Notes: a model not told the origin generated them from the letters alone. A DNA stretch of 63,697 nt, filler included, from Neolecta irregularis DAH-3 (GCA_001929475.1; 10 parts of 10 records of this genome joined end to end with filler, not necessarily neighbours in it); one strand, 5' to 3'; shown: positions 32,031 to 63,697, numbered from the whole stretch's first letter. Numbers and translations are program-made.

Positions 32031-34778
32031 ATGATGTTTCTTCAGGTTATAAATCTGTCGCTTCTGAGTCTCGTTAGTTCTACAACACATGTCCATCATC
32101 AACGCGAATTGTATGAACAATCTACCAAATTTATTCTTTCTGATAAGTGAAGACCAGTCTATCGAGACCCTTCGAAATCCATCGACCAAAGAGTTGAAGA
32201 TCTTTTATCTCGAATGACAGACCAGGAAAAGTTATCTCAGCTCATGCAAGGTATGTGCAATTCTCCAACTTTACGCCTGATATCGTTTTAGGGGATCAAA
32301 TCAATTGGTACAATGATACATCAGGGGCCTTCAATAAAACTGGCTTGATCGACAGTATGAACAGCAAAGGCGGATCTTTCTATGGTAATCATCTGGACAA
32401 TCTGCTGTCCGCTTATTGATTCAGTTGGCGAATATCTTAAAACCATCGACATGTACGCCGAAGCTATCAATTACGGGCAACAGTATCTCATTCAGGATAC
32501 TCGGCTTAGTATTCCAGCGTTCGTGCAGTCAGAAGGCACGAAATAGATTCTCAAAATAGTATTGACGGGTTAGGACTCCATGGTCTTGTGATGACCAATG
32601 CGACTATCTTTACCTCCCCAATCGGTCTAGGCGCGACTTTCAATCCTCAGCTTATCGAAAAGATGGCAGAGGCAATTGCAGAAGAAGCGGCTGTCGTGGG
32701 AATAAACAATCTCTTTTCGCCAAACGTTGATCTGGCTCGAGAACTGCGGTTTGGGCGGACAGAAGAAACGTTCGGAGAAGACCCATATCTGACTGGAGAA
32801 ATGGTATGTCTCTATTTGACATGAATGCCTACCAATAGGCTTATGCTTATGTTGTTGGCTTACAAAGGTCACGCAAGGTAGCTGCTATGCCAAAACATTT
32901 TGCAGCTTTTTCTTCACCTCAAGGAGGATTGAATCTGGCACCTGTCCCAGGCGGTGAGCGCGAATTACGAACGTGTGTAATGAATTAAAATTCGTGCAAT
33001 CTGACATCCTCAGAATATATCTACCACCTTTTAAAAGAGCGATCATGGACGCCGAAGCTACCATGATTATGAGTGCGTATTCATCGTGTGTTGCATTACT
33101 CTCCACATGCTGAATGTTTAGATACGACGGCATCCCATCTATTGCGAATCACCATCTACTGACAGAAATCTTACGCAATGAATGGGGCTATAAATACGCC
33201 GTGATGTGCGATTCAGGCGCGACTGATCTTCTGAGTTCGCAACATGGGCTCTGCGCCACTGGCGACGAGGATTGTATCGCGACTATATCGTTGAATTCTG
33301 GAGTCGATATCGTGAGTAGATGCTTTCTTAATGATCTCAAAGTGATAGGAAATGGGCGGGGGAAGTTTCAACTACAAACAAATTCCTCGACTCGTATCTG
33401 AAGGCAAACTCGAACAGAAAGCATTCGATGATGCAGTCCGGCGAATTCTAAGCGCAAAATTTAAATTGGGTCTCTTTGATACAAATCATAAAAATACCTC
33501 TTTTAGTAACTCGACGGGCAACTATTTCAAAGTTATCAATACACAAATGAAGAAAGATCTTGCCAAAGCCATTGATAGTGAGGCCATGATATTACTTGAA
33601 AATAATGGTGTTCTCCCTCTCGACAGTTCATCTTTAAAATCAATCGCTCTTATTGGACCGTTTGCTAATGCCAACAATTATGGCGACTACGTTGTACAAG
33701 GTTCGAAGTATCGAGGGATAACTCCCCTGGATGGAATCCAAAACCTCATAAAAACAAAATTTCCTAACATTGAAGTCAAATACACGGAAGGCTGTAAGCA
33801 ATGGAGTAACGATCAATCGGGCTTTGCAGCTGCCGAGCAGTTGGCACAGGAAGCCGACGTAGCGATTGTCTTTGTAGGTACATGGAGTCGTGATCAATCG
33901 GAGCTATGGGCTGGTTTGAATGCAACTACCGGGGAACACGTTGATCAATCGAGTCTGGATCTTGTTGGCGCCCAGGCTGACTTGGTTCGAGCGGTTTCTG
34001 CAAAAGCCAAAAAGCTTGTTACGGTTTTGACATCTGGTACTGCGATCACAGAGCCTTGGATCACAAATGTGACACACGCACTTCTGCAAACTTTTTATCC
34101 TGGAGAGCAAGGTGGAGCTGCTTTGGCTGATATCTTATTTGGGCTCACCAATCCTAGCGGTCAGTAGAACGCTCATCAATTTTGGGCTAATCTTTGATAG
34201 GAAAACTCCCCATCTCTCTGCCTCGTTCAGTTGGCACTACGCCTGCATTCTATAATTACCTCAAAGGAGCACGGCCTATCTTTCCTGGCTTCATTCAAAC
34301 AGACGGGGCTTTAAATTTTGGTCACCAATATGTTCTTAACAGCCCGGTACCGTGGTATCCATTTGGTCACGGCTTGTCCTACAGCAATTTCACTATAAAG
34401 GATGCTGTACTTTCTGCGACAAATGTTCCGAGGAACGGGAAGGTAGAAATATCGGTTACTGTTCAGAATAATGGCATCTACGAAGGAAAAGAAGTAATCC
34501 AGGCTTATGTCATCGATGTTGTTAGTTCAGTAGTTACGTCTGAGCGATCTCTTCGTGCTTTCAACAAGGTACCATAATGCCGATTCCTCCAGTCATTAAC
34601 GCACCAGGTGTCGTTGAAACCTAAAGAATCGACGAGTGTCCAGTTAACAATTGATGTGAGTGAGCTTGCTGTCTGGTCTATCAAGAACGAGTTTATTATC
34701 GAACCAGGCCAGTTCCAGATCTTAGTAGGAACATCGAGCGCGCAAATATTTACCAACAGTACTTTCTATGTAATCTAA
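32031..34778 (+). CDS. Secreted glycoside hydrolase family 3 beta-glucosidase/xylosidase (multi-exon)
   Basis: Signal peptide, YRDPSKSIDQRVEDLLSRMT, ARELRFGRTEETFGEDPYL, KHFA, ILRNEWGYKYAVMCD (nucleophile), YPGEQGG, YPFGHGLSY, Fn3-like tail. Confidence 0.92.
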
Positions 34779-48019: not shown

Positions 48020-51000
48020 TATAACAAACGCGATATATGCATTCTTCTCTACAACTCGTCGATTATTCCTCAACCGACGATGAAGACGACGATGATGTTG
48101 ATAAAAGTGAAGTTTCAACACGAAATAAATCAGATTTCATCATCACCCGCACAAATCTTCCTCCGCTACCCGAGTCCTTTCGAGATATTTATATTGGTAT
48201 TTAAACTGTCGTCGGAAATTTATTCATTACAGTTAATCCGCGTATTGGGGATGATCCCGCTCTACATAGCGGCCGAGTACGAACCCAGCCTCACGTAAAA
48301 GGACTTTGGCCTTCGCATGTCTATCTAGAAGGTAGAATCCCCCACAGCAACCGTTGATCCCAAAGTTGGTCCTTGTAGAATGCTTTATGACGCTCTGCAA
48401 GGGATTGTACAAACACTCGCCGAGTCGACACGAAATACAAGATGGAATTCGCTTCTCTGTTCAGAATTTGGCTCCAAAGTGCCCCTTCATATAAGTCTTT
48501 CAGCTCCAATGATGCTTCACACAAATCACAGAAAATCATTCCTTGATCAAATCACCAGAGTCACTACACGAGAAAAGTAATTATCTTGNNNNNNNNNNNN
48601 NNNNNNNNNNNNNNNNNNNNNNNNNNNNNNNNTTAATTAATTAANNNNNNNNNNNNNNNNNNNNNNNNNNNNNNNNNNNNNNNNNNNNCTTGGATAAAGT
48701 CGACCGCGGGAGATCATCCATACATGAGCTCGCCTGCTCGTATCGAAGTCATAGCAATTGCGGAAGTCGGTGGTTTCGTATCCTATTGGCTACAATTGTC
48801 GTTATTTCTTTTCCGCCACTTGCTCCATTGGTAAGATATATCCGGTAATGCCCCGGATATATCCTTACAACTTGGATGGAGTCGGACGCGCTCATGCACG
48901 AACGAGTAGGATGAAGAAGATCGGGAGTAGCAGCATTGTAAGACGAGGACCCAAGTAAGAACAGTGTTGGCAATACGCCCGTCTCCACCTCTCGCTCCTA
49001 TCTCGCCCGCTTCTCCATTCTTACCCGGCCGTCTCTCCTGCCTCGCACACCTATCTCGCCTTTCGTGGCTGCTCACCACCAGACCTTTAAGGATTAGGTT
49101 CAACAACTTACGCTTGCCGTCCGTCCGATGCACCCGCCAACTGTCCTCCAGCTGCTCCTCCTCCAGCCGCTGCGGTGCTGCCCCTGCGCGCCGAGTACTT
49201 CCCCTTCTGCTCCACGCAAAACACGTCCACCGGAAATCCGCATTCTCCGTCTTCCAGTCCGTCGGCGCCTGCTCCCAGACCTGCATGAGGCCTTTGCGAT
49301 CATCCTGCTGGTGCTACACCCTGTTTCCCGCCCTGCGCAGCCCGTTTGAGATTGCTCCCGGCCATGTCCCGGCTATCCCTCAGACAGGTGCGGCAACAAC
49401 GAGACCAATGCCTTTAACTATGTCCAGGTCGGCCATGCCACAGGAACCGCTCTCCCAACACACACCTTCTCCCCGAGGCCCCCCGCCCAGACCTCCATCC
49501 CGTCGCCTCTCCCACGCCCGTCCTCTGCTACACCAACACCAACACCAACCCCGTTTATAATACTATCTTAATTCATTCATGTTTGCATTCCTTTGTCTTT
49601 GTGTCTAAAGATCACTTCAAACAAGGAACAAGATCAGTCGTACTCGTACATTTTAAAATATTCGTCATTGTTTTCTCAATGTTCGTGGGAAGACTTTTGT
49701 TTGTCAATAGCCGACAACCAAAGACACGATATAAGCAAGTAAGCAAGCAAGTCCGGCGGACAAAAATAAGCAAGTAAGCAAGTCCAAAATTTAGATTTGC
49801 TTGTTTGGACTTGAATAGACTTGACTGTTAAGACTTTTAATGAGACATTGAATATTTTCTAAATGTATCTACCAAAAATTATCTCCGTTATCCCAAGAGA
49901 TATCCATTATATTGAAATGTCAATTCCAATTACCAATATGGATTCCAGCAATCTTACCACAGCAAATTTTTCAATTTTTCAGGACCGGACACCTTCAATA
50001 TCACTCAGCGAGATTGATATTGATATATCAACCCCTGGTCCTGAACTTAATTATGATGACGACAAGAGCAGTAGTTCTACATCCCTACCTAAAACGATTT
50101 TGCATTAATGCTTGGAAAGAAAATCCCGATTGGCTTGTTTATAACAATGCTTCCTTTAAAATACTTTGGCAGGAGTATAAGAATCACCTGGGCGTTGGGA
50201 TAATATCACCAAAACCAAAGCCTTGCAGNNNNNNNNNNNNNNNNNNNNNNNNNNNNNNNNNNNNNNNNNNNNTTAATTAATTAANNNNNNNNNNNNNNNN
50301 NNNNNNNNNNNNNNNNNNNNNNNNNNNNCCCTGCCAATATTTGAATCCCATGGTAGACAACCTCCTTCCATAGGCAACCTCTCACTCGCTCCCTGTTGAC
50401 ATCCTACTGCTCTGGGTCGCGCTACTCCGTTCAAGGCCTGAAATTGTCGGGTCATCTGAGAGCAGTCTCCCAGATTAATTGCGAGGTAAAACAGCTTTCA
50501 TATTAAAATTGCTAAGAATATTTGCTGAAAACCCGTTACAGAGTAGCCTCGGTGGATATGTACTGTTGTAAGCTATGCGCTTAGAAGTACGACAAGACCA
50601 AATGTTATAACTAGCCCAAGTATCGTACTTACAAGGGACAGTTTAATCCCCCCGTCAAGCCACCATACCGTATTGGTAAGGTATTTCCTTACAACCTATA
50701 TAACCTTTTGAGATTGTTTTATTGCTATTGCAAAACGCGTCCTGAAATAAAATGATCAAACAGNNNNNNNNNNAGTCTAATCCCCCGTCAAGCCACCATA
50801 CCGTATTGGTAAGATATACCCATATAACCTTTTGAGATTGTTTTATTGCTATTGCAAAACGCGTCCTGAAATAAAATGATCAAACAGAATTTTCATCTAG
50901 ATATCAAATCCCACCTCTAAACAGACTATCACAGCCCAATCTAGTGTAAAGATACTTGAAATAATTCAATCACCGTAATAATCAAATAAACTTGAGGTTC

Positions 51001-51222: not shown

Positions 51223-52539
51223 TTAAGAGGGGACAGTAAATATGGAAGCGGGGTGTTCAGCTAGAGCAGCTGAGAGTTGGTCCTGAGTGATGGTATCGCC
51301 AATGACAAATGAGTCGTCTAGCGCGAGGATATCGATTGTATGAGCGGCAGATTTGAAGTAAACAAGGAACTTTTTAGGAGTTTGAACTGGTCGTGCAATC
51401 CAGTCTGGGCTACCACCTCCTCCTGAGATTTTGCCGTTGGTTGAGGCACCGCCTTGAGCAATGTGGAGGTGGGAGGTGCACCTTTCGTTACCCGGATCGA
51501 GGACTTCGAGAATATCGAATTCGCCACAACCTGTGTCCCAGCACGAGCTTGGGCTGTACTGGCCGCAGTCTGCGATACGCGAGTTTAGCATCCAGAAGGC
51601 GGGCATGTCGTTGTTGATGGGGGAGTTTACATTGTCGTGGGGCATCAAGAGTTCAACGATGAAGATGGAATCCTCAGGCTTGAAGCCGTCTAAATTGTGA
51701 GAAGGGAATGAAGGGGAATTGGTACGGTAAGCGACTTCAGGGCCACCTCTGACAAATCCTGGACAATTATCGCCGCATTTCTGGCCCGTTTTGACGATGA
51801 TCTCGACGTTTGAGGGGATGACTGTTTGCTCGAGGGTTTGGGGGGCGGCAGCAGCACCATGGCCGTTGGCGCCCGCAAAACTGAGCGAGTTTCCAAAGGC
51901 GGAGGACCAAGTGCCCGAGCCATTGACGCCGCCCAAGTTGTTTAGGAAGACGATATTGTCAGCAGTCTGGGAGGCTGCGTTGTAGTAGCTTGATCTGCTC
52001 CAAGCGTTTCCAGAACAGGGGCCTGCGGTGGGGAGCGGCGTGGAGCTGTATGACACCGAAGCGGAGGACGTGGCGGTGACGCTGAAGCCTCTGGCGTTAT
52101 TGTGGTGATGGGAGTGTCTGCGGGCGCGGGTGTGGGAGGGGTCTCGCGTGGCAATGGAGCTCGAGAAGGCGGAGGCGTGGATGTCCAAGGAGGAGGTGGA
52201 GGCGGGCTGGCAAGACGCGGGGGAGTATACAGCGAGGGTGTTTAGCTGGAGCGGGCCGCGGAAATGCAGGCTGACTGTTTCGTTGTTGAGGAAGGGCGAG
52301 CCGGAGAAGGGGACCTGCATGCGGGACACGGCACCGGTGACCTCGTCCATGAAGGAGGGCGTCTGGAAGGAGCCCTCCTCCTGGTTGAAGTTTTCATAGG
52401 TGATGTGCTGTGTCTGGCTGCAGTAGGTATTGCCAGCAATAAACTGGCAGGCGGCGGCGGCGGCGGGGTCAGCGCGGACGGGTGCGGGCAGCAGCGCGAG
52501 AACGAGCGAGAGCGCGGAGACGGACGCAGAAAGGGCCAT
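51223..52539 (-). CDS. TOS1: Tos1/YJL171C-like secreted cell-wall glucanase-fold protein (DUF2403 plus DUF2401)
   Basis: Signal peptide, SLHFRGPLQL, IVFLNN, FGNSLSFA, DMPAFWMLN..QY..SCWDTGCGEFDILE; a 36-nt intron at 51690-51725 restores AYHGF. Confidence 0.88.
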   Translation of the reverse strand: MALSASVSALSLVLALLPAPVRADPAAAAACQFIAGNTYCSQTQHITYENFNQEEGSFQTPSFMDEVTGAVSRMQVPFSGSPFLNNETVSLHFRGPLQLNTLAVYSPASCQPASTSSLDIHASAFSSSIATRDPSHTRARRHSHHHNNARGFSVTATSSASVSYSSTPLPTAGPCSGNAWSRSSYYNAASQTADNIVFLNNLGGVNGSGTWSSAFGNSLSFAGANGHGAAAAPQTLEQTVIPSNVEIIVKTGQKCGDNCPGFVRGGPEVAYRTNSPSFPSHNLDGFKPEDSIFIVELLMPHDNVNSPINNDMPAFWMLNSRIADCGQYSPSSCWDTGCGEFDILEVLDPGNERCTSHLHIAQGGASTNGKISGGGGSPDWIARPVQTPKKFLVYFKSAAHTIDILALDDSFVIGDTITQDQLSAALAEHPASIFTVPS

Positions 52540-53010
52540 GGCGGGCGGGCGAGCAAGGAGAGACGCGGGTGGGACGCAGGGCAGCGGCAGGGGCGGCGGC
52601 GGCAGGGGTTAAATACAGCTCAGGGGTAGAGAGTGCGCGCTAGTGGCAGCCAAGATCCGGCTTGGAAGGAGCGAGGGTGTGGCGGCGGAGTAAGGAGCGG
52701 AGAGCGGGCGGTGCTTTTTTGGTCCTCTCGCTGGGGAACCGGCGCGCTTTATAGCCAGGTCACCTTCGTGTGACTGGCGCGCGCCCGTGTGTTCCTGTGC
52801 CACCCCAGCGCCTGCGACGCGCGCGACGTGCCCGCGGTGCTCCGCACGCTACCCAGCCGCCCCCGCGCGCTGTTTCCCGCCCTGCGCAGCCCGTTGGATG
52901 ATTGCTCCCCGCCTTGTCCCGGCTACCCCTCAGCCTTTAGCCATTAGACCTCTCCTCCCGTCGCCTCTCCCACGCGCCTCCCCTCCGCTCCGCTACCCCA
53001 ACACCGACTC

Positions 53011-54122: not shown

Positions 54123-55213
54123 GTTGTGCGAGGGATGAATTCATTTTCCGCCTTGTGATATCGTTTATGATAGTTCCCTTCTTTAGGCTTCCGAGTATTG
54201 GAAATACATCTGTTCTGATTTCGTATCAAGGTGTTTGTTATCCCTTCTTTCTGAAACCTGTGCGGCATGGGTTTCAAAAGATCTTGATGGCATTTGCACA
54301 TGACGATTGTGATCCCCCTTTTCACTTTTCTCGGCCTACTCTTTTTTATGGTTTACGGATCTCACCTACGATCCATTTGCTAATCGTCATATCTGGCCCT
54401 CTGGACGTCCACTGTGTCTAACATACTGCTCGGCCAGGGAATAATCAATCAACCTATCGCGTTAGTAAAACTAGCTTGATGGAGCTCATTCTCCAATTGA
54501 TGTAGACCAGACTCAGTGAAAGAATTTATATTCGTCATTTAGGGAATGCAAACCTTAAAAATATCTTGAACATGACCAAATTTGTAAATATGGAACGATT
54601 CTTCTAGTCATCGCAGAGCAAATTTCGAAACCAAGTTGCGAAGACTAATGCACTGCCACTATGAGTGTAATTAGGAAAGGCGCAGGGGCAAGTCAAAATA
54701 AAATAAAATGATTTCTATGTGGCCATTTCTTTCGTTGGTGAAGTATGCTTCACATACTAACAAAGCTCACTCGAATCATCCTGATTACCGTGTCACGTGA
54801 TCACATGCAAATCTTGCGGGCATAACTTTGAGTAAATTGCAATCAATTCACAGTTGAACAACCAACTAACGTATTCAAACCAAACAAGGACTATCGGGAT
54901 CAGAATGTAAAGGCGGAACTAACTGTCTGCCAACAAATTCAATACAAGAAAGTCCATGGGGGACCTTTGAAGAAGCATCACATGGAAGAAACTGCCAAAC
55001 CGCTAACAGCCTGCCAGAGCACTCTCCAGGTGAGGAGTAAATGTAGACAGTGTTCCTAATAACTCAAATATAATAAACCAAATTCAAATATTTGCCAAAT
55101 AGCCAAATCAAATNNNNNNNNNNNNNNNNNNNNNNNNNNNNNNNNNNNNNNNNNNNNTTAATTAATTAANNNNNNNNNNNNNNNNNNNNNNNNNNNNNNN
55201 NNNNNNNNNNNNN

Positions 55214-56804
55214 CGGGCGGCATCGCCTGCGGGGGCGGCGCAGAGCCCCACGGATTGTGGGGCGCGGCAGGCAGTGCCTTTGCCTGGCGGGTTAGCGAGG
55301 CAGGGCAGAGCGGGACGAAGGCACCCAGGGATTCGCAGGCTGCGCCCACGGCGTCTGGCCGAGCGACTGCGCGGACCCGGCGTCGAGCAGGCGGCCGTCG
55401 CTGTGACCGCCGCCGCCGCCGCCGCCCAGCTCCTGCATCAGGCTCTCGTACTCGCGGTCGGCGGCACTGGTGATCTGGGCGGCGGCGCGGCGCTGGGCGT
55501 CGGGCTTCTCGGGACAGTCCTTCATGATGTGCCCGGCCTGGCCGCACGCGCGGCACACGATGTTTGCGCTGTAGTTGCGGATCTCGGGGCAGTCGTAGCG
55601 CCGGTGGCCGATGTTGCCGCCTGCGGTCGGTCAGCACAGTCAGCACAGCCGGCACAGCCAGCACAGCCAGCACAGCCGGCAGCGTACAGTTCTGGCACGT
55701 CTGGTTCTCGTCGTCGCGCAGCGTGCCGTTGAGCGTCGCCAGCTCGCGCAGCTGCGCCCGCTTCAGGTCGTTCTGCGTCTCCGGGATGCTCGCCGCCTGC
55801 TCCGTCAGCCGCCGCCGCCAGCCGCCAGCCGCACCGTCTCGATCACGTTCTGGATCAGCTCCACCGCCCGCTTGACCTTGTCCTCGTTGTCCGCCATCAC
55901 CAGGCAGTGCAGGTCCTCCTCCAGGTTCGAGCTCGTCGCCGCGTCGCTGCGCCCCTTGCCCTCCTTCACGCTACCCTTGCCGCGGATCGCAATCTTCGCC
56001 CCGCTGTCCGTCTCCATCTTCTTGAGCGTGTTGCCGCGCGGTCCGATCAAGAGCCCGACTGAGATAGAGAGTTAGTATGTTTATGCAGGGGAATAAGATG
56101 GACGAACTAAAGTTAATTTCTGGATACTGTGCTGTTAGCCGCGTAGCCAAAACCCCCACTTGCGTCGTTCACAGGGATGTAGATCTTTTCTTGCGTCTTC
56201 GTCGGCCGGCGGTAGTCCGCCGGCGGCTTGAAGTCGGGGATCGTCCGCATCGCCTTCTCAATGAGCCGGTGGCGCTCGTCCTCCAGCTTCTTGCGGTACC
56301 GCGACTCGCGCGTATTGATTCGCCGCCCAAAATTGTCGTACTGCGGCGGTGGCGACACAGACCGGCTGCATATCAGCCACATATGCAATACAACTCACCG
56401 GTCCTTCTCCGGCGGCGTCACGTCCCCGATCCGCAGCTTCTGCCCAATCTCCTCAAGCCGGATGTGCAGAGCATACGCTTCGATCTGCTCCGTCGTCATC
56501 GTCGACGTGATCGCAGTGGGCAGCCCGATCAGCCCCAGCGCCTTGTTGTCTTCGGCCGCGCCCCAGCGATTGCGCTTCTTCTTGACCCGGCCAGAACGCA
56601 CAGGCGACCGTCCTCGGATTTGCCCGTTGGCCGCCACTGCCGGCGGAGGAGGGGCCGCGCGAGTCTGAACGTGCGGCGCAGGTGCCTCGTCCATCTCGTC
56701 AAACCCTCGACGACGGCCCAGCGGAATATTGTTCGTTCCTGTGATGCCTAACTGCTTAGTACTGCGCACAGGAAAGGCCTGCCTTGGGATGCGCGCCAGG
56801 ACAT
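55214..56804 (-). CDS. MSL5: Branch-point binding protein Msl5/BBP/SF1 (multi-exon; 3' end cut by the linker)
   Basis: [25 protein letters not shown]2 (YPEINF|..[34 protein letters not shown]) and two zinc knuckles. Confidence 0.95.
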
Positions 56805-56999
56805 GGTGGTGGAGGCAGGAAGAGCAACCACCCACGCAAAGTTTGCTCACCGCTTTCCACACCTCGCTTTGTTTCTGTCTTTTATATTGTCCTAGATAAT
56901 ATTCGTATATTACATCAAATATTATGTATATCATCTTTTCTCCATCACTTTTCCCCATCCATATTCTGACTTTTTCCCTAGCTTCCTCCCCTATCCATC

Positions 57000-57336
57000 A
57001 TGTCCTCTGGCTTCGGCATCCACAACGCCAGCCCCCCGCGGTGCCATCGTTTTTTCCAAGAATTCACAGCTTGCTTTGCCAGTCGCGACAATCCAAGAGA
57101 TTGCCAGCCATTCCACCAAGACTACTTTGAATGTCTCCACGGAAGAAAAGCTGTACCTACCTACCTCTGCCTTACTCATCGCAGAAAGGACGACATTTGC
57201 GTGTCGTCGAAGAAACCCTGAGAAGCCAAAAATCTACAAGAGACCGCATACAGAATGCCTTGGATGGCCACAGTGGCTTGGTATCGTCCCGTAATTCCTT
57301 CTTGACTCTTAGGGCTTAATTGATCGCCCCGAATAG
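57000..57336 (+). CDS. NDUFS5: NADH:ubiquinone oxidoreductase subunit NDUFS5 (twin CX9C)
   Basis: MSSGFG..RCHRFFQEFTAC..DCQPFHQDYFECLH; the last exon and stop are uncertain (57319 or 57336). Confidence 0.82.
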
Positions 57337-57947: not shown

Positions 57948-58232
57948 NNNNNNNNNNNNNNNNNNNNNNNNNNNNNNNNNNNNNNNNNNNNTTAATTAAT
58001 TAANNNNNNNNNNNNNNNNNNNNNNNNNNNNNNNNNNNNNNNNNNNNATAGTTAGGTATGGTAGTTAGCAAGCTATTTAAATAAGGAAGGTCCCTTATTG
58101 ACATGTGCTTGTGCGACATCACATGTAACGTTGCACAACATTGTGTTAAGTTACACCACTATGTACCAAGTAACACTATGTAGGACAAAGATAATGAAAT
58201 GTAGTAAGCATATCTAGGGTCATATGCTTACA

Positions 58233-58521
58233 GCGAACCTCACTTCAAGTACCCATATGCCTAAAGGCATCTAGGTATTGTGTAATCCAATAATAAAAAT
58301 ATATAGGGGGATCCCTGAGCCTGGATCATTCTCTGAGACAGGGGCGCCTATGACACAGGGGCACCCCTGGGCCAGGGGTGGACTATTAGCCAGGGGCAGT
58401 ACCTGAGACAGGGGCCCACTATTAACCCGGGGCAATTCCTGAGACAGGGGGCCTATAGGATAGGGGCAGCTATGGCTATATAAGCCACTATAAGGAGGCT
58501 TAATTAGCCATCATCCTTACA
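58233..58521 (-). repeat. Left copy of a ~285-bp repeat (solo-LTR-like or long TIR), inverted relative to 61308-61592
   Basis: Its reverse complement aligns end to end with 61308-61592; starts TGTAAGG on the minus strand; internal GAGACAGGGG subrepeats. Confidence 0.85.
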
Positions 58522-58738
58522 AATATAAGGTCTTTGTTTAAGTGTTTACCACCACAGTACCTTAAATCTATGGTCTACTTTGACCAACCAGACCAAGCAA
58601 TCTTGTGGTCTAGACCAACCATACCAGAGGTCCTGGTCTGGTCAGTCTGGTTGATTAAGAATACTGCCTGCAAGCTCACCTATTCTCAAAATTTAATTTT
58701 TATATTTTTTTACTATTTCTAATTATTTTTATTATTAT

Positions 58739-60856
58739 TTACTCTTCTGGGGTAGTATCAATTGCTAGATGAATTGGATTAAATATACTGCTACCTGGTC
58801 CAACAGCTACTGGTGATTTAATTTGAAGTATATTTGCTATTTTGAAAAACTCTATGGTAATCTAAAAACTATAAGCCAATCAACTTTTAGGTTAAATGTA
58901 CTAAATTCTGTCTAGTTGCTCTTAGTGATTCCTTGATAGTCCAGTTTGTTTGGTGCCAATATCTTATTACAATTTCTATTGATAGATTTGGATTTATAAT
59001 ATTTGTTTGTATTTTTAAAATACCTTTGAAATGATTTGGATACTTTTGAAGGAATATAGTTAGATGTTCTTTTAGTTTGCTTATTTGCATAAAGGTTATA
59101 GGTGAACAAATTTGAGTAAATACTTCTCCCAGATTATGTGATTGTGTATAATTAATTACATTATACATCTGGATAAATGTATAGCTAATTGAAATATAAG
59201 TTCCATTAGTTTGTTGTATAATAATACTAAATAAGTTAATTTCTATAATATATCCTTGAAAAAAGTTTTCATTATAAATTTTATCATATGCCCATGGAGA
59301 ATGAATTGTTGTGATAAGCTCAGATTTATTAATTGCAATCATATCTCCTATACTTCAAAATTAATTATTTTTACTTTTCAACATAAATAATTTACCAAAA
59401 ATTTGTCATTTGAAATAGTTTTAAAATAGTTTGAGTAAAAGGATTAAGGAGTAATATAATAGTAATTAGAGTTAGTCCAAAATATATCAAATGCAGCCAA
59501 TTTGACTTAATCCAAGCTAAAAGAAGAAGGAAAGTTAGAATTATAATAATCTATAATTTTAGAAAAATCTTTTATTTTTCTTATCAACCATTAATCCTAT
59601 TGTAATATAGTAGATTAACTGTTTAAAAAGGGTTGGTATTTGATCAATATCCAAAAGAGTACAAAATTTATTATAGTTATTGCTAGTATATATCTTCAAA
59701 ATTAGAGACTAATAACCTCCATAGATCTATACTATAGAGTTAATAAAATCATCTTTAGTAGCAACAAGAAGTTCAATATTTTGTTCATAATACTTTAGTA
59801 ATTAATATAAGTCATTGAAAATTATAAATACATCAGTAAGATATTTAAAGACCCTGGAACAATTCTTTGGATTTGGAAAACAGTAAGTTAAATTTGGTGA
59901 AGAAAGAGTAATATTCCTAAATATAAGAAATAGATATTGTTAATTTGAAAATCAAATACCTTTGTCCTTGTTCTTGACAGAGACCAAGAAAGCAAAAAGA
60001 AGCAAATCTTTTTGCTCCTTCTTTTGTTTGAAGAAGTTTTTCTACTATTACTTGAGTTTTATTAATATTATTTAAGTTAAAAGTAGTTTCTTTTATATTG
60101 TAGTCTTGTTCCAATTCAATTAATAATTCTTTCAGTTTTCCTAAGTGATTGGGCATATATCTACTTTGTGAAAATTTCTTTTCAGATTGCTGTAACTGAA
60201 TATTAATATATAAGAAAATTTGAGTTAAAACTTGAATTTGGAAATAATAGTATACTAGTTCAACCTTTGAAGATCTCTTTTGAAATTTAAAAACCCTAGA
60301 AAACTTCAGAAATATATGTTAGAAAAGAAGCTAAATACTGAATATGTATAAATAATCTTAATAAAGTAGATAAAGTAAGAAGACATAATGCAATAAGTAC
60401 TTCTTTCTGATTTAAGAAAAAACTATATACCTTAGTTGAACCACCTAAATAAGTTGAAAAGAGAATTGAAATTTGTAATTCAGGATTTCTAACTATTCAG
60501 AACATATATATATAGGTTTATATTATATACCTTTGATATAATAATATTAAGTAGAATGCTAGGTACCAAATAGAGCATGCTAGTTGTATTCTTAAATTTT
60601 TGGCAATATATTTATATCTTTGTTGATAAGCATTGCCTTTCAAGGCCTTGCAAACAAGAAATGGAATAATAAAGGTTGTAAAAAGCATTATAAAAGGGAA
60701 AGAACTAACCAAGTAAATAAGTTTGAGTATTACCATAGCAGAATGATATTCTTCTAATTTATAGATTATTTTCTCATAGACTATATGCAAAGGAACTAAT
60801 AGAAGAAGAGGAATAAAATATTCAAGAATCCTACAAAATGAAAGGTAATACTGCAT
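58739..60856 (-). pseudogene. Degenerate MscS-like (Msy1/Msy2-type) mechanosensitive channel pseudogene
   Basis: N-terminal TM segments; IVEKLLQTKEGAKRFA, CFPNPKNCSRVF..ATKDDFINSIV*, GYIIEINLFSIIIQQTNG..INYTQS..ISKLKEHLTIFLQKYPNHF..YWHQTNW align by eye to the fungal MscS-like core; multiple stops; GT-AG introns retained. Confidence 0.65.
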
Positions 60857-61592
60857 ATGAAATTGCTTTCTAGATGTAGAGAATCAAAGAATCAAAGTGA
60901 GATAATTATCAATGTTATGATAATCTTACTAGAATTAAAAAACTAGTATATAGTATGGTGAGTATAAGGAGATTACTCTAGTGGTTAGTATGAATACAAT
61001 ATATAATCTAGTGGTGGAAGGTTATGGAAGGTAATTGAATAAGCTACTATATTATGTAACCACTAATTAGTGGCCTTATTGTATTATAAGTAGATAGGCT
61101 GACCTTGCTAGGAACCTTATCTTGATATAAGAGTACTAATGAATCAGGTATATAGAATAAAGGTCTTCACACTAGAGTACTGATGAGTTAGCCCTTCAAA
61201 GATATATGGTATCTCTAGACAGCTAGGATCCACCAAAGGTAACACAGGCCTGATCAGGTTATACAAGGAGTACTAGTGGATCTTGTGTAACACTCAAGGC
61301 TGTGTTGTGTAAGGATAATGGCTAACCAGGTTTCCTTACAGTGGCTTATATAGCCACAAGTACCCTTATCCTACTGGCTCCCCTGTCTCAGGAATTCCCC
61401 TGGTTAATAGTAGGCTCCTGTCTCAGGTACTACCCCTGGCTAATAGTCTGCCCCTTGCCCAGGGGTGCCCCTGTGTCATAGGTGCCCCTGTTTCAGAGAG
61501 TGATCCAGACTCAGGGATCCCCTATATATATTTATTATTAGATTACACAGTATCCAGATACCTCTAGGCATATGGGTACTTGGGAGTGAGGT

Positions 61593-62034
61593 CAGTGTTA
61601 GGGATGGACTGTGCCAGTGGCTTGGTCCTAGCACCCTTGGGCATTAATAGGAAGTGTGATCAGGGTAGTATTGGCAACAATATGAAAAGATATATCATAT
61701 ATTATATATTATGTAATATGATATATAGTCCTTTTGTATAATAATGTAACTATTTAATTTTTGTCACATCATATAAGATAAACTTTTTGATTGTGTGATA
61801 ATATTATAACATTTTTATACTACCAAAAACACATAGTTCATATTGTTTCTAACACAAGGTTACAAAATGAAAAAATATTATAGTATATCATAAAATACAA
61901 AAACTGATGTCAGATTTTCATATTGTTGCCAACACTGGATCAGGGGAGTTACCTAAGCTGCCTGTCTTCCAATTGTTAATTCAGGCCCATGGATATGATG
62001 CCTACGCTACTGGTACAGTCCATCCCCAACACTG
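61593..62034. mobile_element. hAT-family MITE (outer), 442 bp including a nested insert
   Basis: TIRs CAGTGTTAGGGATGGACTGTGCCAGT and ACTGGTACAGTCCATCCCCAACACTG; perfect 8-bp TSD AGTGAGGT at 61585-61592 and 62035-62042. Confidence 0.9.
61666..61937. mobile_element. hAT-family MITE (inner, nested), 272 bp
   Basis: TIRs TAGTATTGGCAACAATATGAAAA and TTTTCATATTGTTGCCAACACTG; perfect 8-bp TSD GATCAGGG at 61658-61665 and 61938-61945. Confidence 0.9.
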
Positions 62035-62241
62035 AGTGAGGTTCACTCAGCATGTCACATAATCTGAGATCAGGAGATGCTAGTTATGCACCTTAATATT
62101 GTCACTATTAATTAAGCAACCAAGCCAAGGAATAAGGTTGCTAATTAATAGATATTGCAAGTACCCAAAGGGATACTCACAAGATTTTTTACCAGACTCA
62201 CCAACATACCCCCAGAAGATAGAGGAACCCAACAGCAACTC

Positions 62242-62387
62242 CAGTGTTGGCAATAATATAAATAATACAATATTCCCAATATAAAAAGGTGAAAATATTA
62301 TCATGATATCAAAAAGTATATATTATATCATCACAATATATATTTAAAGGTCAAAATATTATCACAATATCAAAAATTCCACATTAT
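62242..62387. mobile_element. Left end of another hAT MITE related to the inner element (truncated by the linker)
   Basis: Begins CAGTGTTGGCAATAATATAAA, then AT-rich ATCACAATAT subrepeats like those of the inner MITE. Confidence 0.6.
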
Positions 62388-62706
62388 NNNNNNNNNNNNN
62401 NNNNNNNNNNNNNNNNNNNNNNNNNNNNNNNTTAATTAATTAANNNNNNNNNNNNNNNNNNNNNNNNNNNNNNNNNNNNNNNNNNNNAATAACATACTAT
62501 GTCTAACGGAAAAATGCTGGTAGTCTAGTAATAAGTCCCGAAATTAGGGGACCGGACATTTCAAAAAACTGCAAACGTGATGGAGATTAAATGGTCTGAG
62601 ATACGTGATCATGGCATCAAGANNNNNNNNNNATCTCTTCAACAGCATCAGTTCGTTCATCAAGTGCTCTACAAATTAGTCATTCTGAATTACTGANNNN
62701 NNNNNN

Positions 62707-63697
62707 TCTCTTCAACAGCATCAGTTCGTTCATCAAGTGCTCTACAAATTAGTCATTCTGAATTACTGAAAAATTTACCGTCTATCTGTAAGAGGTCTAC
62801 CCACCCATCCTCGTAGCAATCTCCTTCCAAACTTTGTAATGGTATGATCCAAAACCCAGAATAAACTCCCCCTGTCAGTAAAATCGGTTTGATTGCGGTA
62901 GATTTCGAGATTCGATATTGTGTTCCCATTCAATAACATACTATGTTTAACGGAAAAATGCTGGTAGTCTAGTAATAAGTCCCGAAATTAGGGGACCGGG
63001 CATTTCAAAAAACTGCAAACGTGATGGAGATTAAATGGTCTGAGATACGTGATCATGGCATCAAGACATACACTGCAGAGTCAGAAAAGATGGCACCAAG
63101 GTAGCATTTACAGGATACTTTCTGGGTACTCCAGGATTGTTTCGTTTGAATCTCGAATTAATTGAACTCCCAGTTATCAAGTTGTACCTTTATTATAAGA
63201 CATTTGACTGGATTCTTCATCTGTGTTGGTGAAGAATTCCGAAACTCGTTTGACAGCTTCTTCAAATGAGGCAGGGTTTTCAATTCGCTCAAGTCTGACC
63301 TGATCCCCCAAACAGCTTCTTAAAAATTAGAATTATTCTGGAACCCTACATACGAGTTTTCAACGAGCTGTTTAACCAATTTTTCTGTCGTATGAGATAG
63401 AATTCCAAGCGTAATCATTTCACACGGCTGTAAATGCAAAAGACGTGTCTCCAATTCCGATCTCAGAAAACCATCTTCAAATTCATCAAATATGATATCC
63501 CCTGTAGAGGGCTGAACAGCCACAAACGAAATCATGACCTTATCCGCCTTTGAAATTTCAAAGAGTGTCATTAAATAACCGGTTGTTGGAGCCAAGGATG
63601 TATCGTCGACAGACACATCATCGATTAGAGTTCCTTTCGTATATAAATTTGTTAGTTTTCGTTCGAAAAGCTTATTCTTGGTATCGCTCGAAGCCTT
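62707..63697 (-). CDS. MSH3: DNA mismatch-repair protein Msh3, internal fragment (62488-62696 are duplicated pieces)
   Basis: [89 protein letters not shown]. Confidence 0.9.

Follow-up and report, generated by a model that had tools for sequence, protein, structure and literature searches.

The assembly of the ascomycete fungus Neolecta irregularis DAH-3 (GCA_001929475.1) contains a 4,340-bp scaffold in which a predicted gene lies between the arms of an inverted repeat, one arm being broken by two nested miniature inverted-repeat transposable elements (MITEs), and in which the dinucleotide CpG is nearly absent. We analysed this scaffold within a window of 63,697 nt, the whole stretch of DNA considered here, which consists of ten separate scaffolds joined through N...TTAATTAATTAA...N linkers; positions are counted from the first letter of the window, and the interval 58048–62387 coincides exactly with one of the ten. 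An earlier note on this DNA had taken its lack of CpG, together with a bias towards transitions, as the mark of a repeat-targeted, CpG-biased mutation system of this fungus, akin to DNA methylation or to repeat-induced point mutation (RIP). We find that the observation is real and that most of the inference drawn from it is not upheld. The features that carry the argument are as follows.

58048–62387, no strand: the whole isolated scaffold, 4,340 bp, 31.4% GC, 6 CG against 106.6 expected
58430–62004, no strand: CG-free stretch, 3,575 bp, 0 CG against 78.7 expected by composition, with 79 GpC observed
58237–58530, plus strand: left arm of the inverted repeat, about 49.7% GC, 2 CG against 18 expected; homology extends outward to about 58222
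61300–61592, minus strand: right arm of the inverted repeat, 48% GC, 0 CG against 16.9 expected; its outer end is broken by the outer MITE (MITE-B), and the arm resumes at 62043–62060
58887–60856, minus strand: predicted intact gene of eight exons (60856–60531, 60488–60339, 60295–59960, 59916–59832, 59792–59733, 59693–59589, 59550–59396 and 59352–58887), 560 codons and seven GT–AG introns, with no internal stop

CpG depletion across a single scaffold

The depletion of CpG in this scaffold is far beyond chance. The ratio of observed to expected CpG (o/e) is 0.056, as against 0.75–1.10 in the nine other scaffolds (hereafter the host scaffolds), and GpC stands at an o/e of 1.00. All six CG dinucleotides lie near the scaffold ends (58114, 58129, 58234, 58345, 58428 and 62005), so that the CG-free run, noticed earlier by eye as extending from about 58530 to 61990, covers 58430–62004. 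All 529 host windows of 500 bp have a CpG o/e of at least 0.49 and at least 9 CG, and none falls below 33% GC. Equal CpG o/e in unique DNA of the same AT content would have made the depletion unremarkable. The five AT-richest host windows (33–36% GC) average 0.72; the host offers no window to match the AT-richness of the 23–25% GC core, which leaves the comparison at equal AT content incomplete.

The loss is spread over the scaffold without regard to repeats. Counted by part, CG is observed in 0 of 50 expected cases in the core, 2 of 18 in the left arm, 0 of 17 in the right arm, 1 of 12 in the MITEs and 0 of 26 in the coding sequence. The exons and introns of the predicted gene, non-repeated within this scaffold, are thus as CpG-free as the inverted repeat and the MITEs, and the loss is therefore not limited to repeats, contrary to the earlier proposal that it was aimed at them. 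Nor is CpG the only dinucleotide to differ from the host: TpA has an o/e of 1.08 (host 0.73), CC/GG of 1.53 (1.00) and GA/TC of 0.87 (1.16). Within the joined DNA, blastn found no similarity between this scaffold and the other nine.

A predicted gene with ultra-short introns

The DNA between the arms had been described as holding a pseudogene with TAA and TAG stops. A path search that allowed only GT–AG introns of 30–50 nt leads from an ATG at 60856 to a stop at 58887 through seven introns of 42, 43, 43, 39, 39, 38 and 43 nt. All interruptions of the straight reading frames fall within these introns and no internal stop is left, and for this reason the ‘pseudogene’ is, on sequence, better read as a predicted intact gene with ultra-short introns, whichever organism it came from. 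Six of the seven donors begin GTA, and by eye a CTRAY-like motif stands a few bases before each acceptor. The minus strand has stop-free runs of 157, 135 and 133 codons in DNA of 25% GC; a run of at least 133 codons appeared in 1 of 1,000 shuffles of the core, against the three observed. When the donor and acceptor dinucleotides were replaced by decoys, 9 of the 256 possible pairs bridged the gene with at most seven such introns, and the eight besides GT–AG use AT dinucleotides occurring two to four times as often as GT. The gene span has 24.6% GC, the exons 25.4% and the introns 19.5%, and GC at the three codon positions (GC1, GC2 and GC3) is 0.33, 0.26 and 0.17. Thirty-eight CAA or CAG glutamine codons remain.

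Other genetic codes were considered and rejected. Under a ciliate code, in which TAA and TAG specify glutamine, the resulting open frames are by our estimate not longer than chance at such an AT content, and the long standard-code frames use only CAA and CAG for glutamine; reading TGA as tryptophan, as in a mitochondrial code, hardly lengthens the frames.

Near its N terminus the predicted product bears four hydrophobic segments, and a further two immediately precede a marginal match to the MscS β-domain (Pfam PF00924, cut-off 20.2 bits; score 20.6–20.7 bits, E about 5 × 10−4), and clusters assigned to PF00924 are among its language-model neighbours. It would be a six-segment membrane protein, possibly MscS-like. 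The placing of hydrophobic segments ahead of the β-domain match is shared with the eukaryotic MscS-like channels (plant MSL and fission-yeast Msy; PF00924), but unlike these the product here has no match in the PDB, among cluster representatives or among longer proteins. Searched with phmmer against 1.84 billion cluster representatives, the largest open frame gave no match, not even to itself; this frame or its read-through gave none in longer proteins, viral contigs or metagenome contigs, and no meaningful one in PDB sequences. A single-sequence AlphaFold model of the product reached a pLDDT of 35, too low for a fold search.

Inverted repeat, nested MITEs and the case for RIP

The two arms align over 287 bp at 87.1% identity, with 29 transitions, 9 transversions and 3 gap columns between them (alignment columns 47–330), which bears out the earlier remark that their differences are mostly transitions. 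At 58375–58383, GGGGTGGAC stands opposite GGGGCAGAC in the other arm, so that 58379–58380 reads TG in one copy and CA in the other, as had been noted. The CpGs at 58234 and 58345, two of the three that remain in the left arm, are CpA in the right arm, and the third, at 58428, faces ApG, a transversion; the sites are few, and together with the TG/CA site and the normal GpC they agree with loss of CpG by transition. A CpG bias among the present differences, also proposed earlier, is not borne out: of 27 scored transitions, 12 lie in CpA, 9 in CpT, 5 in CpC and 1 in a present-day CpG. The per-site rates are 0.39 for CpA, 0.21 for CpT, 0.09 for CpC and 0.5 for CpG (the last from 1/4 sites); drawn from two copies without an outgroup, and from arms whose G-runs may be constrained, these contexts are suggestive only. 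Both arms are already CpG-poor (2 and 0 CG, against 17–18 expected in each) and have undergone CpG changes since, and therefore their ancestor was CpG-poor before the duplication and the process is old and still running.

The arms are built of G-rich subrepeats in which YAGGGGC recurs about every 18 nt, in units of 35–36 nt, along with a TATATAA motif. Roughly nine YAGGGGC motifs per arm (58300–58500 and 61330–61530) are followed by GGCTATATAAGCC. The motifs point inwards, so that the predicted gene starts about 450 bp downstream of the right arm. The array looks like a set of promoter, enhancer or transposase-binding sites, for which it is a candidate. A 26-mer from the arms had no match in metagenome contigs.

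The right arm is broken by a pair of nested elements, and their end motif recurs nearby.

61593–62034, no strand: MITE-B, 442 bp, with inverted ends CAGTGTTRGGGATGGACTGT, 25 of 28 positions identical
61666–61937, no strand: MITE-A, 272 bp, 21% GC, nested within MITE-B, with ends TAGTATTGGCAAC and CAGTGTTGGCAAC, 21 of 25 positions identical
61837–61855, minus strand: degenerate copy of the MITE-A end motif
62240–62262, plus strand: further copy of the MITE-A end motif, whose partner, if there is one, would be past the end of the scaffold

Each element is flanked by a perfect 8-bp target duplication, AGTGAGGT at 61585–61592 and 62035–62042 for MITE-B and GATCAGGG at 61658–61665 and 61938–61945 for MITE-A. 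The left arm keeps the empty site of MITE-B (compared at 58222–58252), and MITE-B entered the right arm later, after the duplication. The MITE-A end motif has four matches in the whole joined DNA, all in this scaffold, where 0.09 would be expected by chance. Target duplications of 8 bp and CAG-type terminal inverted repeats are traits of the hAT family. The length of the duplications and the end sequences of both nested elements, short terminal inverted repeats starting CAG, suggest that MITE-A and MITE-B are hAT-type, a likeness to hAT-superfamily MITEs that is limited by there being no transposase here. One end of MITE-A reads TAGTA where the opposite end has CAGTG, again as noted earlier.

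This structure invites an explanation by classical RIP, or by a RIP-like premeiotic process, in which the inverted duplication would have triggered C-to-T mutation in the arms that leaked into the DNA between them. Such a process would suit the transition excess between the arms, the per-site rate that is highest at CpA, the two CpA/TpG-to-TpA changes that separate TAGTA from CAGTG at the MITE-A end, and a TpA/ApT ratio of 1.05, over the usual RIP threshold of 0.89. It would also suit the composite RIP index in 1-kb windows of the scaffold, which runs from −0.23 to +0.12 and lies above most of 100 host windows (mean −0.60, maximum −0.07). Over the scaffold as a whole, however, the composite index is −0.12, where the available text of PMC12210899 gives a value above 0 as the sign of RIP, and (CpA+TpG)/(ApC+GpT) is 1.17. 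The distribution of base composition is the opposite of RIP leakage: the arms, which would be the trigger, have 48–50% GC and the unique core 27%. The gene between them carries no nonsense mutation and retains its 38 CAA and CAG codons, prime targets of RIP. In three Taphrinomycotina genomes, Neolecta not among them, RIP went undetected according to the accessible part of PMC7882544. The C-to-T and G-to-A bias between copies, the prevalence of the CpA context and the raised TpA do resemble RIP in Neurospora and other Pezizomycotina; but in contrast to that system, whose hallmarks are mutation confined to or strongest in duplicated DNA and frames riddled with nonsense, the arms here are the least AT-rich part, the gene is intact, the index is not positive and the loss of CpG reaches beyond the repeats. 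We consider RIP very improbable as the cause.

A second fungal precedent is the TpCpG hypermutation of Pucciniomycotina transposons, defined on basidiomycete repeat families (Horns et al. 2012, PMC3318451, in the portion available). This is a fungal, CpG-centred C-to-T process of the kind the earlier note proposed, but it differs from the present case in that unique sequence is hit equally here, that the host belongs to the ascomycetes and shows no such effect in its other scaffolds, and that no family alignment underlies the pattern. Because the decay extends across gene, introns, arms and MITEs alike, what the scaffold records is a regional or genome-wide mutational regime and not homology-triggered, repeat-targeted RIP.

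CpG decay and the origin of the scaffold

Selective loss of CpG with normal GpC, arm sites at which CpG faces CpA or TG faces CA, and a threefold excess of transitions together point to the trace of 5-methylcytosine deamination. In the source genome or compartment, CpG would have turned into TpG or CpA much faster than other sites mutated, which is the pattern that deamination of 5-methylcytosine at CpG would leave. The decay would have struck all 4.3 kb, comprising the gene, its introns, the 0.3-kb inverted duplication and the two nested MITEs, and would have gone on after the duplication, as 58234 and 58345 (CG against CA) and 58379–58380 (TG against CA) suggest. Methylation as the cause is inferred. 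The scaffold shares with the 5-methylcytosine-driven depletion of vertebrates, and of methylated fungal transposon regions (DNMT1/DNMT5), the selective loss of CpG, the normal GpC, the predominance of transitions and the occurrence of CpG in one paralogous copy opposite TpG or CpA in another. It is unlike them in depth, with zero CpG over 3.5 kb including exons, and in having no excess of TpG and CpA. For human DNA, the available part of a review gives a depletion of about five-fold (PMC13297926).

CpG might also be avoided without any methylation, as a signature of organellar, plasmid or viral DNA or through selection against the dinucleotide. The combination of low CpG with CC/GG at 1.53 and TpA at 1.08 recalls the signature of some mitochondrial genomes. 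The seven spliceosomal-type GT–AG introns, though, indicate a nuclear gene, and reading TGA as tryptophan does little for the frames. Rfam and tRNA scans of the scaffold found no RNA gene, viral contigs yielded no relative of the largest open frame, and a DNA search of plasmid records gave no match to the scaffold. The CpG-to-CpA and CpG-to-TpG differences between the arms indicate mutation and not mere avoidance. Avoidance without methylation seems to us very improbable.

The earlier inference is weakest on the question of whose DNA has decayed. N. irregularis is uncultured, and its sequence came from fruiting bodies collected in the wild, with an assembly of 14.5 Mb and 44% GC as described in the accessible text of PMC5309816. 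The nine host scaffolds carry ordinary fungal genes or domains (Sec3, SRP40, Sin1, GH3, Tos1, Vps3844, NTR2, SF1 and MutS), and two N. irregularis DAH-3 proteins match their scaffolds at 100% identity over exons. These 59 kb of Neolecta, at 44% GC, show normal CpG and no trace of its loss, and the odd scaffold departs from them both in its GC content and in the majority of dinucleotides; the earlier attribution of the mutation system to this fungus is not supported. As a test for a contaminant, its GC, CpG, TpA, CC/GG, GA/TC and codon-position GC all fall outside the host values, which for the codon positions are 0.43–0.56 (GC1), 0.45–0.52 (GC2) and 0.36–0.67 (GC3). At 25% GC, and only 26% at GC2, the gene keeps an open frame and can be spliced, and must therefore have evolved for long under selection in AT-rich DNA. 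Set against an assembly of 44% GC with normal CpG, a gene so adapted makes a foreign origin the most likely one. We lean slightly towards the view that the scaffold comes from a different organism, AT-rich and fungus-like, that was present in the wild fruiting body, and not from the main Neolecta nuclear genome. To the fuller proposition, that it records a methylation-type decay, by transitions specific to CpG, in the DNA of such an organism, we give an even chance.

Several points weigh against this preferred view. Simple deamination predicts an excess of TpG and CpA, and none is seen (o/e 1.04, against 1.06 in the host). We know of no fungus with exons so free of CpG. The gene model is a prediction from sequence alone. 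The protein has no homologue in any collection searched (the 1.84 billion representatives and the PDB, viral and metagenome sets), so that no donor can be named. The introns, at 38–43 nt, resemble those of the host (34–41 nt in GH3, 36 nt in Tos1) and have the same GTA...CTRAY...YAG layout, which favours Neolecta itself or a fungus of the same habit; in its architecture the gene looks fungal and like those of the host. Finally, DNA-methyltransferase-domain proteins, of unstated class, are reported for N. irregularis in the available portion of a preprint (bioRxiv 10.1101/2023.05.12.540427), which makes a native methylated compartment possible.

On such a native account, the scaffold would belong to an AT-rich, transposon-bearing compartment of the Neolecta genome (pericentromeric, subtelomeric or accessory, for example) in which cytosines are methylated, the gene-rich bulk being unmethylated and keeping its CpG. 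With its AT-rich core set between inverted repeats, the layout of the scaffold is reminiscent of centromeres of the fission-yeast type. Besides the match of introns in size and layout and the methyltransferase-domain proteins, this account could draw on DIM-2 and RID homologues in two other Taphrinomycotina (as far as the accessible part of PMC7882544 goes), on the scaffold having passed whatever filtering the assembly had, and, weakly, on a similar third-position T/(T+A) of 0.55 against 0.53. It has to contend with a 560-codon gene of 25% GC that is hard to place in a genome of 44% GC where none of the 529 windows falls below 33% GC or a CpG o/e of 0.49, with the divergence of most dinucleotides beyond CpG, and with the absence of a match between any part of the scaffold and the other 59 kb. 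That phmmer found not even a self-match among the 1.84 billion representatives also tells against it, as apparently no predicted protein covering the open frame is there. We regard a native compartment as possible, though doubtful; its stronger form, in which methylation drives CpG near extinction while the genes stay intact and spliceable, we think rather unlikely. A literature search on repeats, CpG or contaminant scaffolds of the Neolecta assembly found nothing, the supplementary methods of the genome paper being outside its scope.

Some observations on the host scaffolds stand apart from these questions. The introns of these Neolecta genes are unusually short. The GH3 β-glucosidase gene (32031–34775, plus strand) has ten of about 34–41 nt, with 39% GC and 11 CG in 399 nt, and Tos1 (51223–52539, minus strand) has a single in-frame intron of 36 nt, through which a scan for open reading frames passes straight. 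GC3 is 0.67 in Tos1 and 0.36–0.38 in other host genes, so host genes differ widely in this respect; none comes near the 0.17 of the gene described above. Local GC in the host rises to 57–67% (52001–53000 and 55001–57000). Two otherwise unrelated host scaffolds, with normal overall CpG o/e of 0.95 and 0.89, have in common a 64-nt stretch of 92% identity (49321–49383 and 52870–52933), possibly a short repeat dispersed in the host genome. The last scaffold (62488–63080) is self-repetitive around 10-N gaps: by eye, 62488–62622 is almost identical to 62935–63070, and about 64 bases are present on either side of the N run at 62697–62706. This is probably an artefact of scaffolding or gap closing.

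What the scaffold shows, then, is a regional or genome-wide regime of CpG decay whose owner is uncertain, and not a repeat-targeted defence in N. irregularis. If it is foreign, the finding amounts to a pointer for cleaning up a public assembly built from wild-collected material, and to a caution against inferring a genome-defence system from a single odd scaffold. If it is native, a relative of fission yeast would have kept in operation a regime of methylation and mutation directed at CpG, and this regime would shape a separate compartment of its genome. Mutagenesis driven by methylation would then have its first trace within Taphrinomycotina, extreme for any fungus and found in an early-diverging ascomycete, and the finding would have a bearing on the time at which this group lost RIP and DNA methylation.

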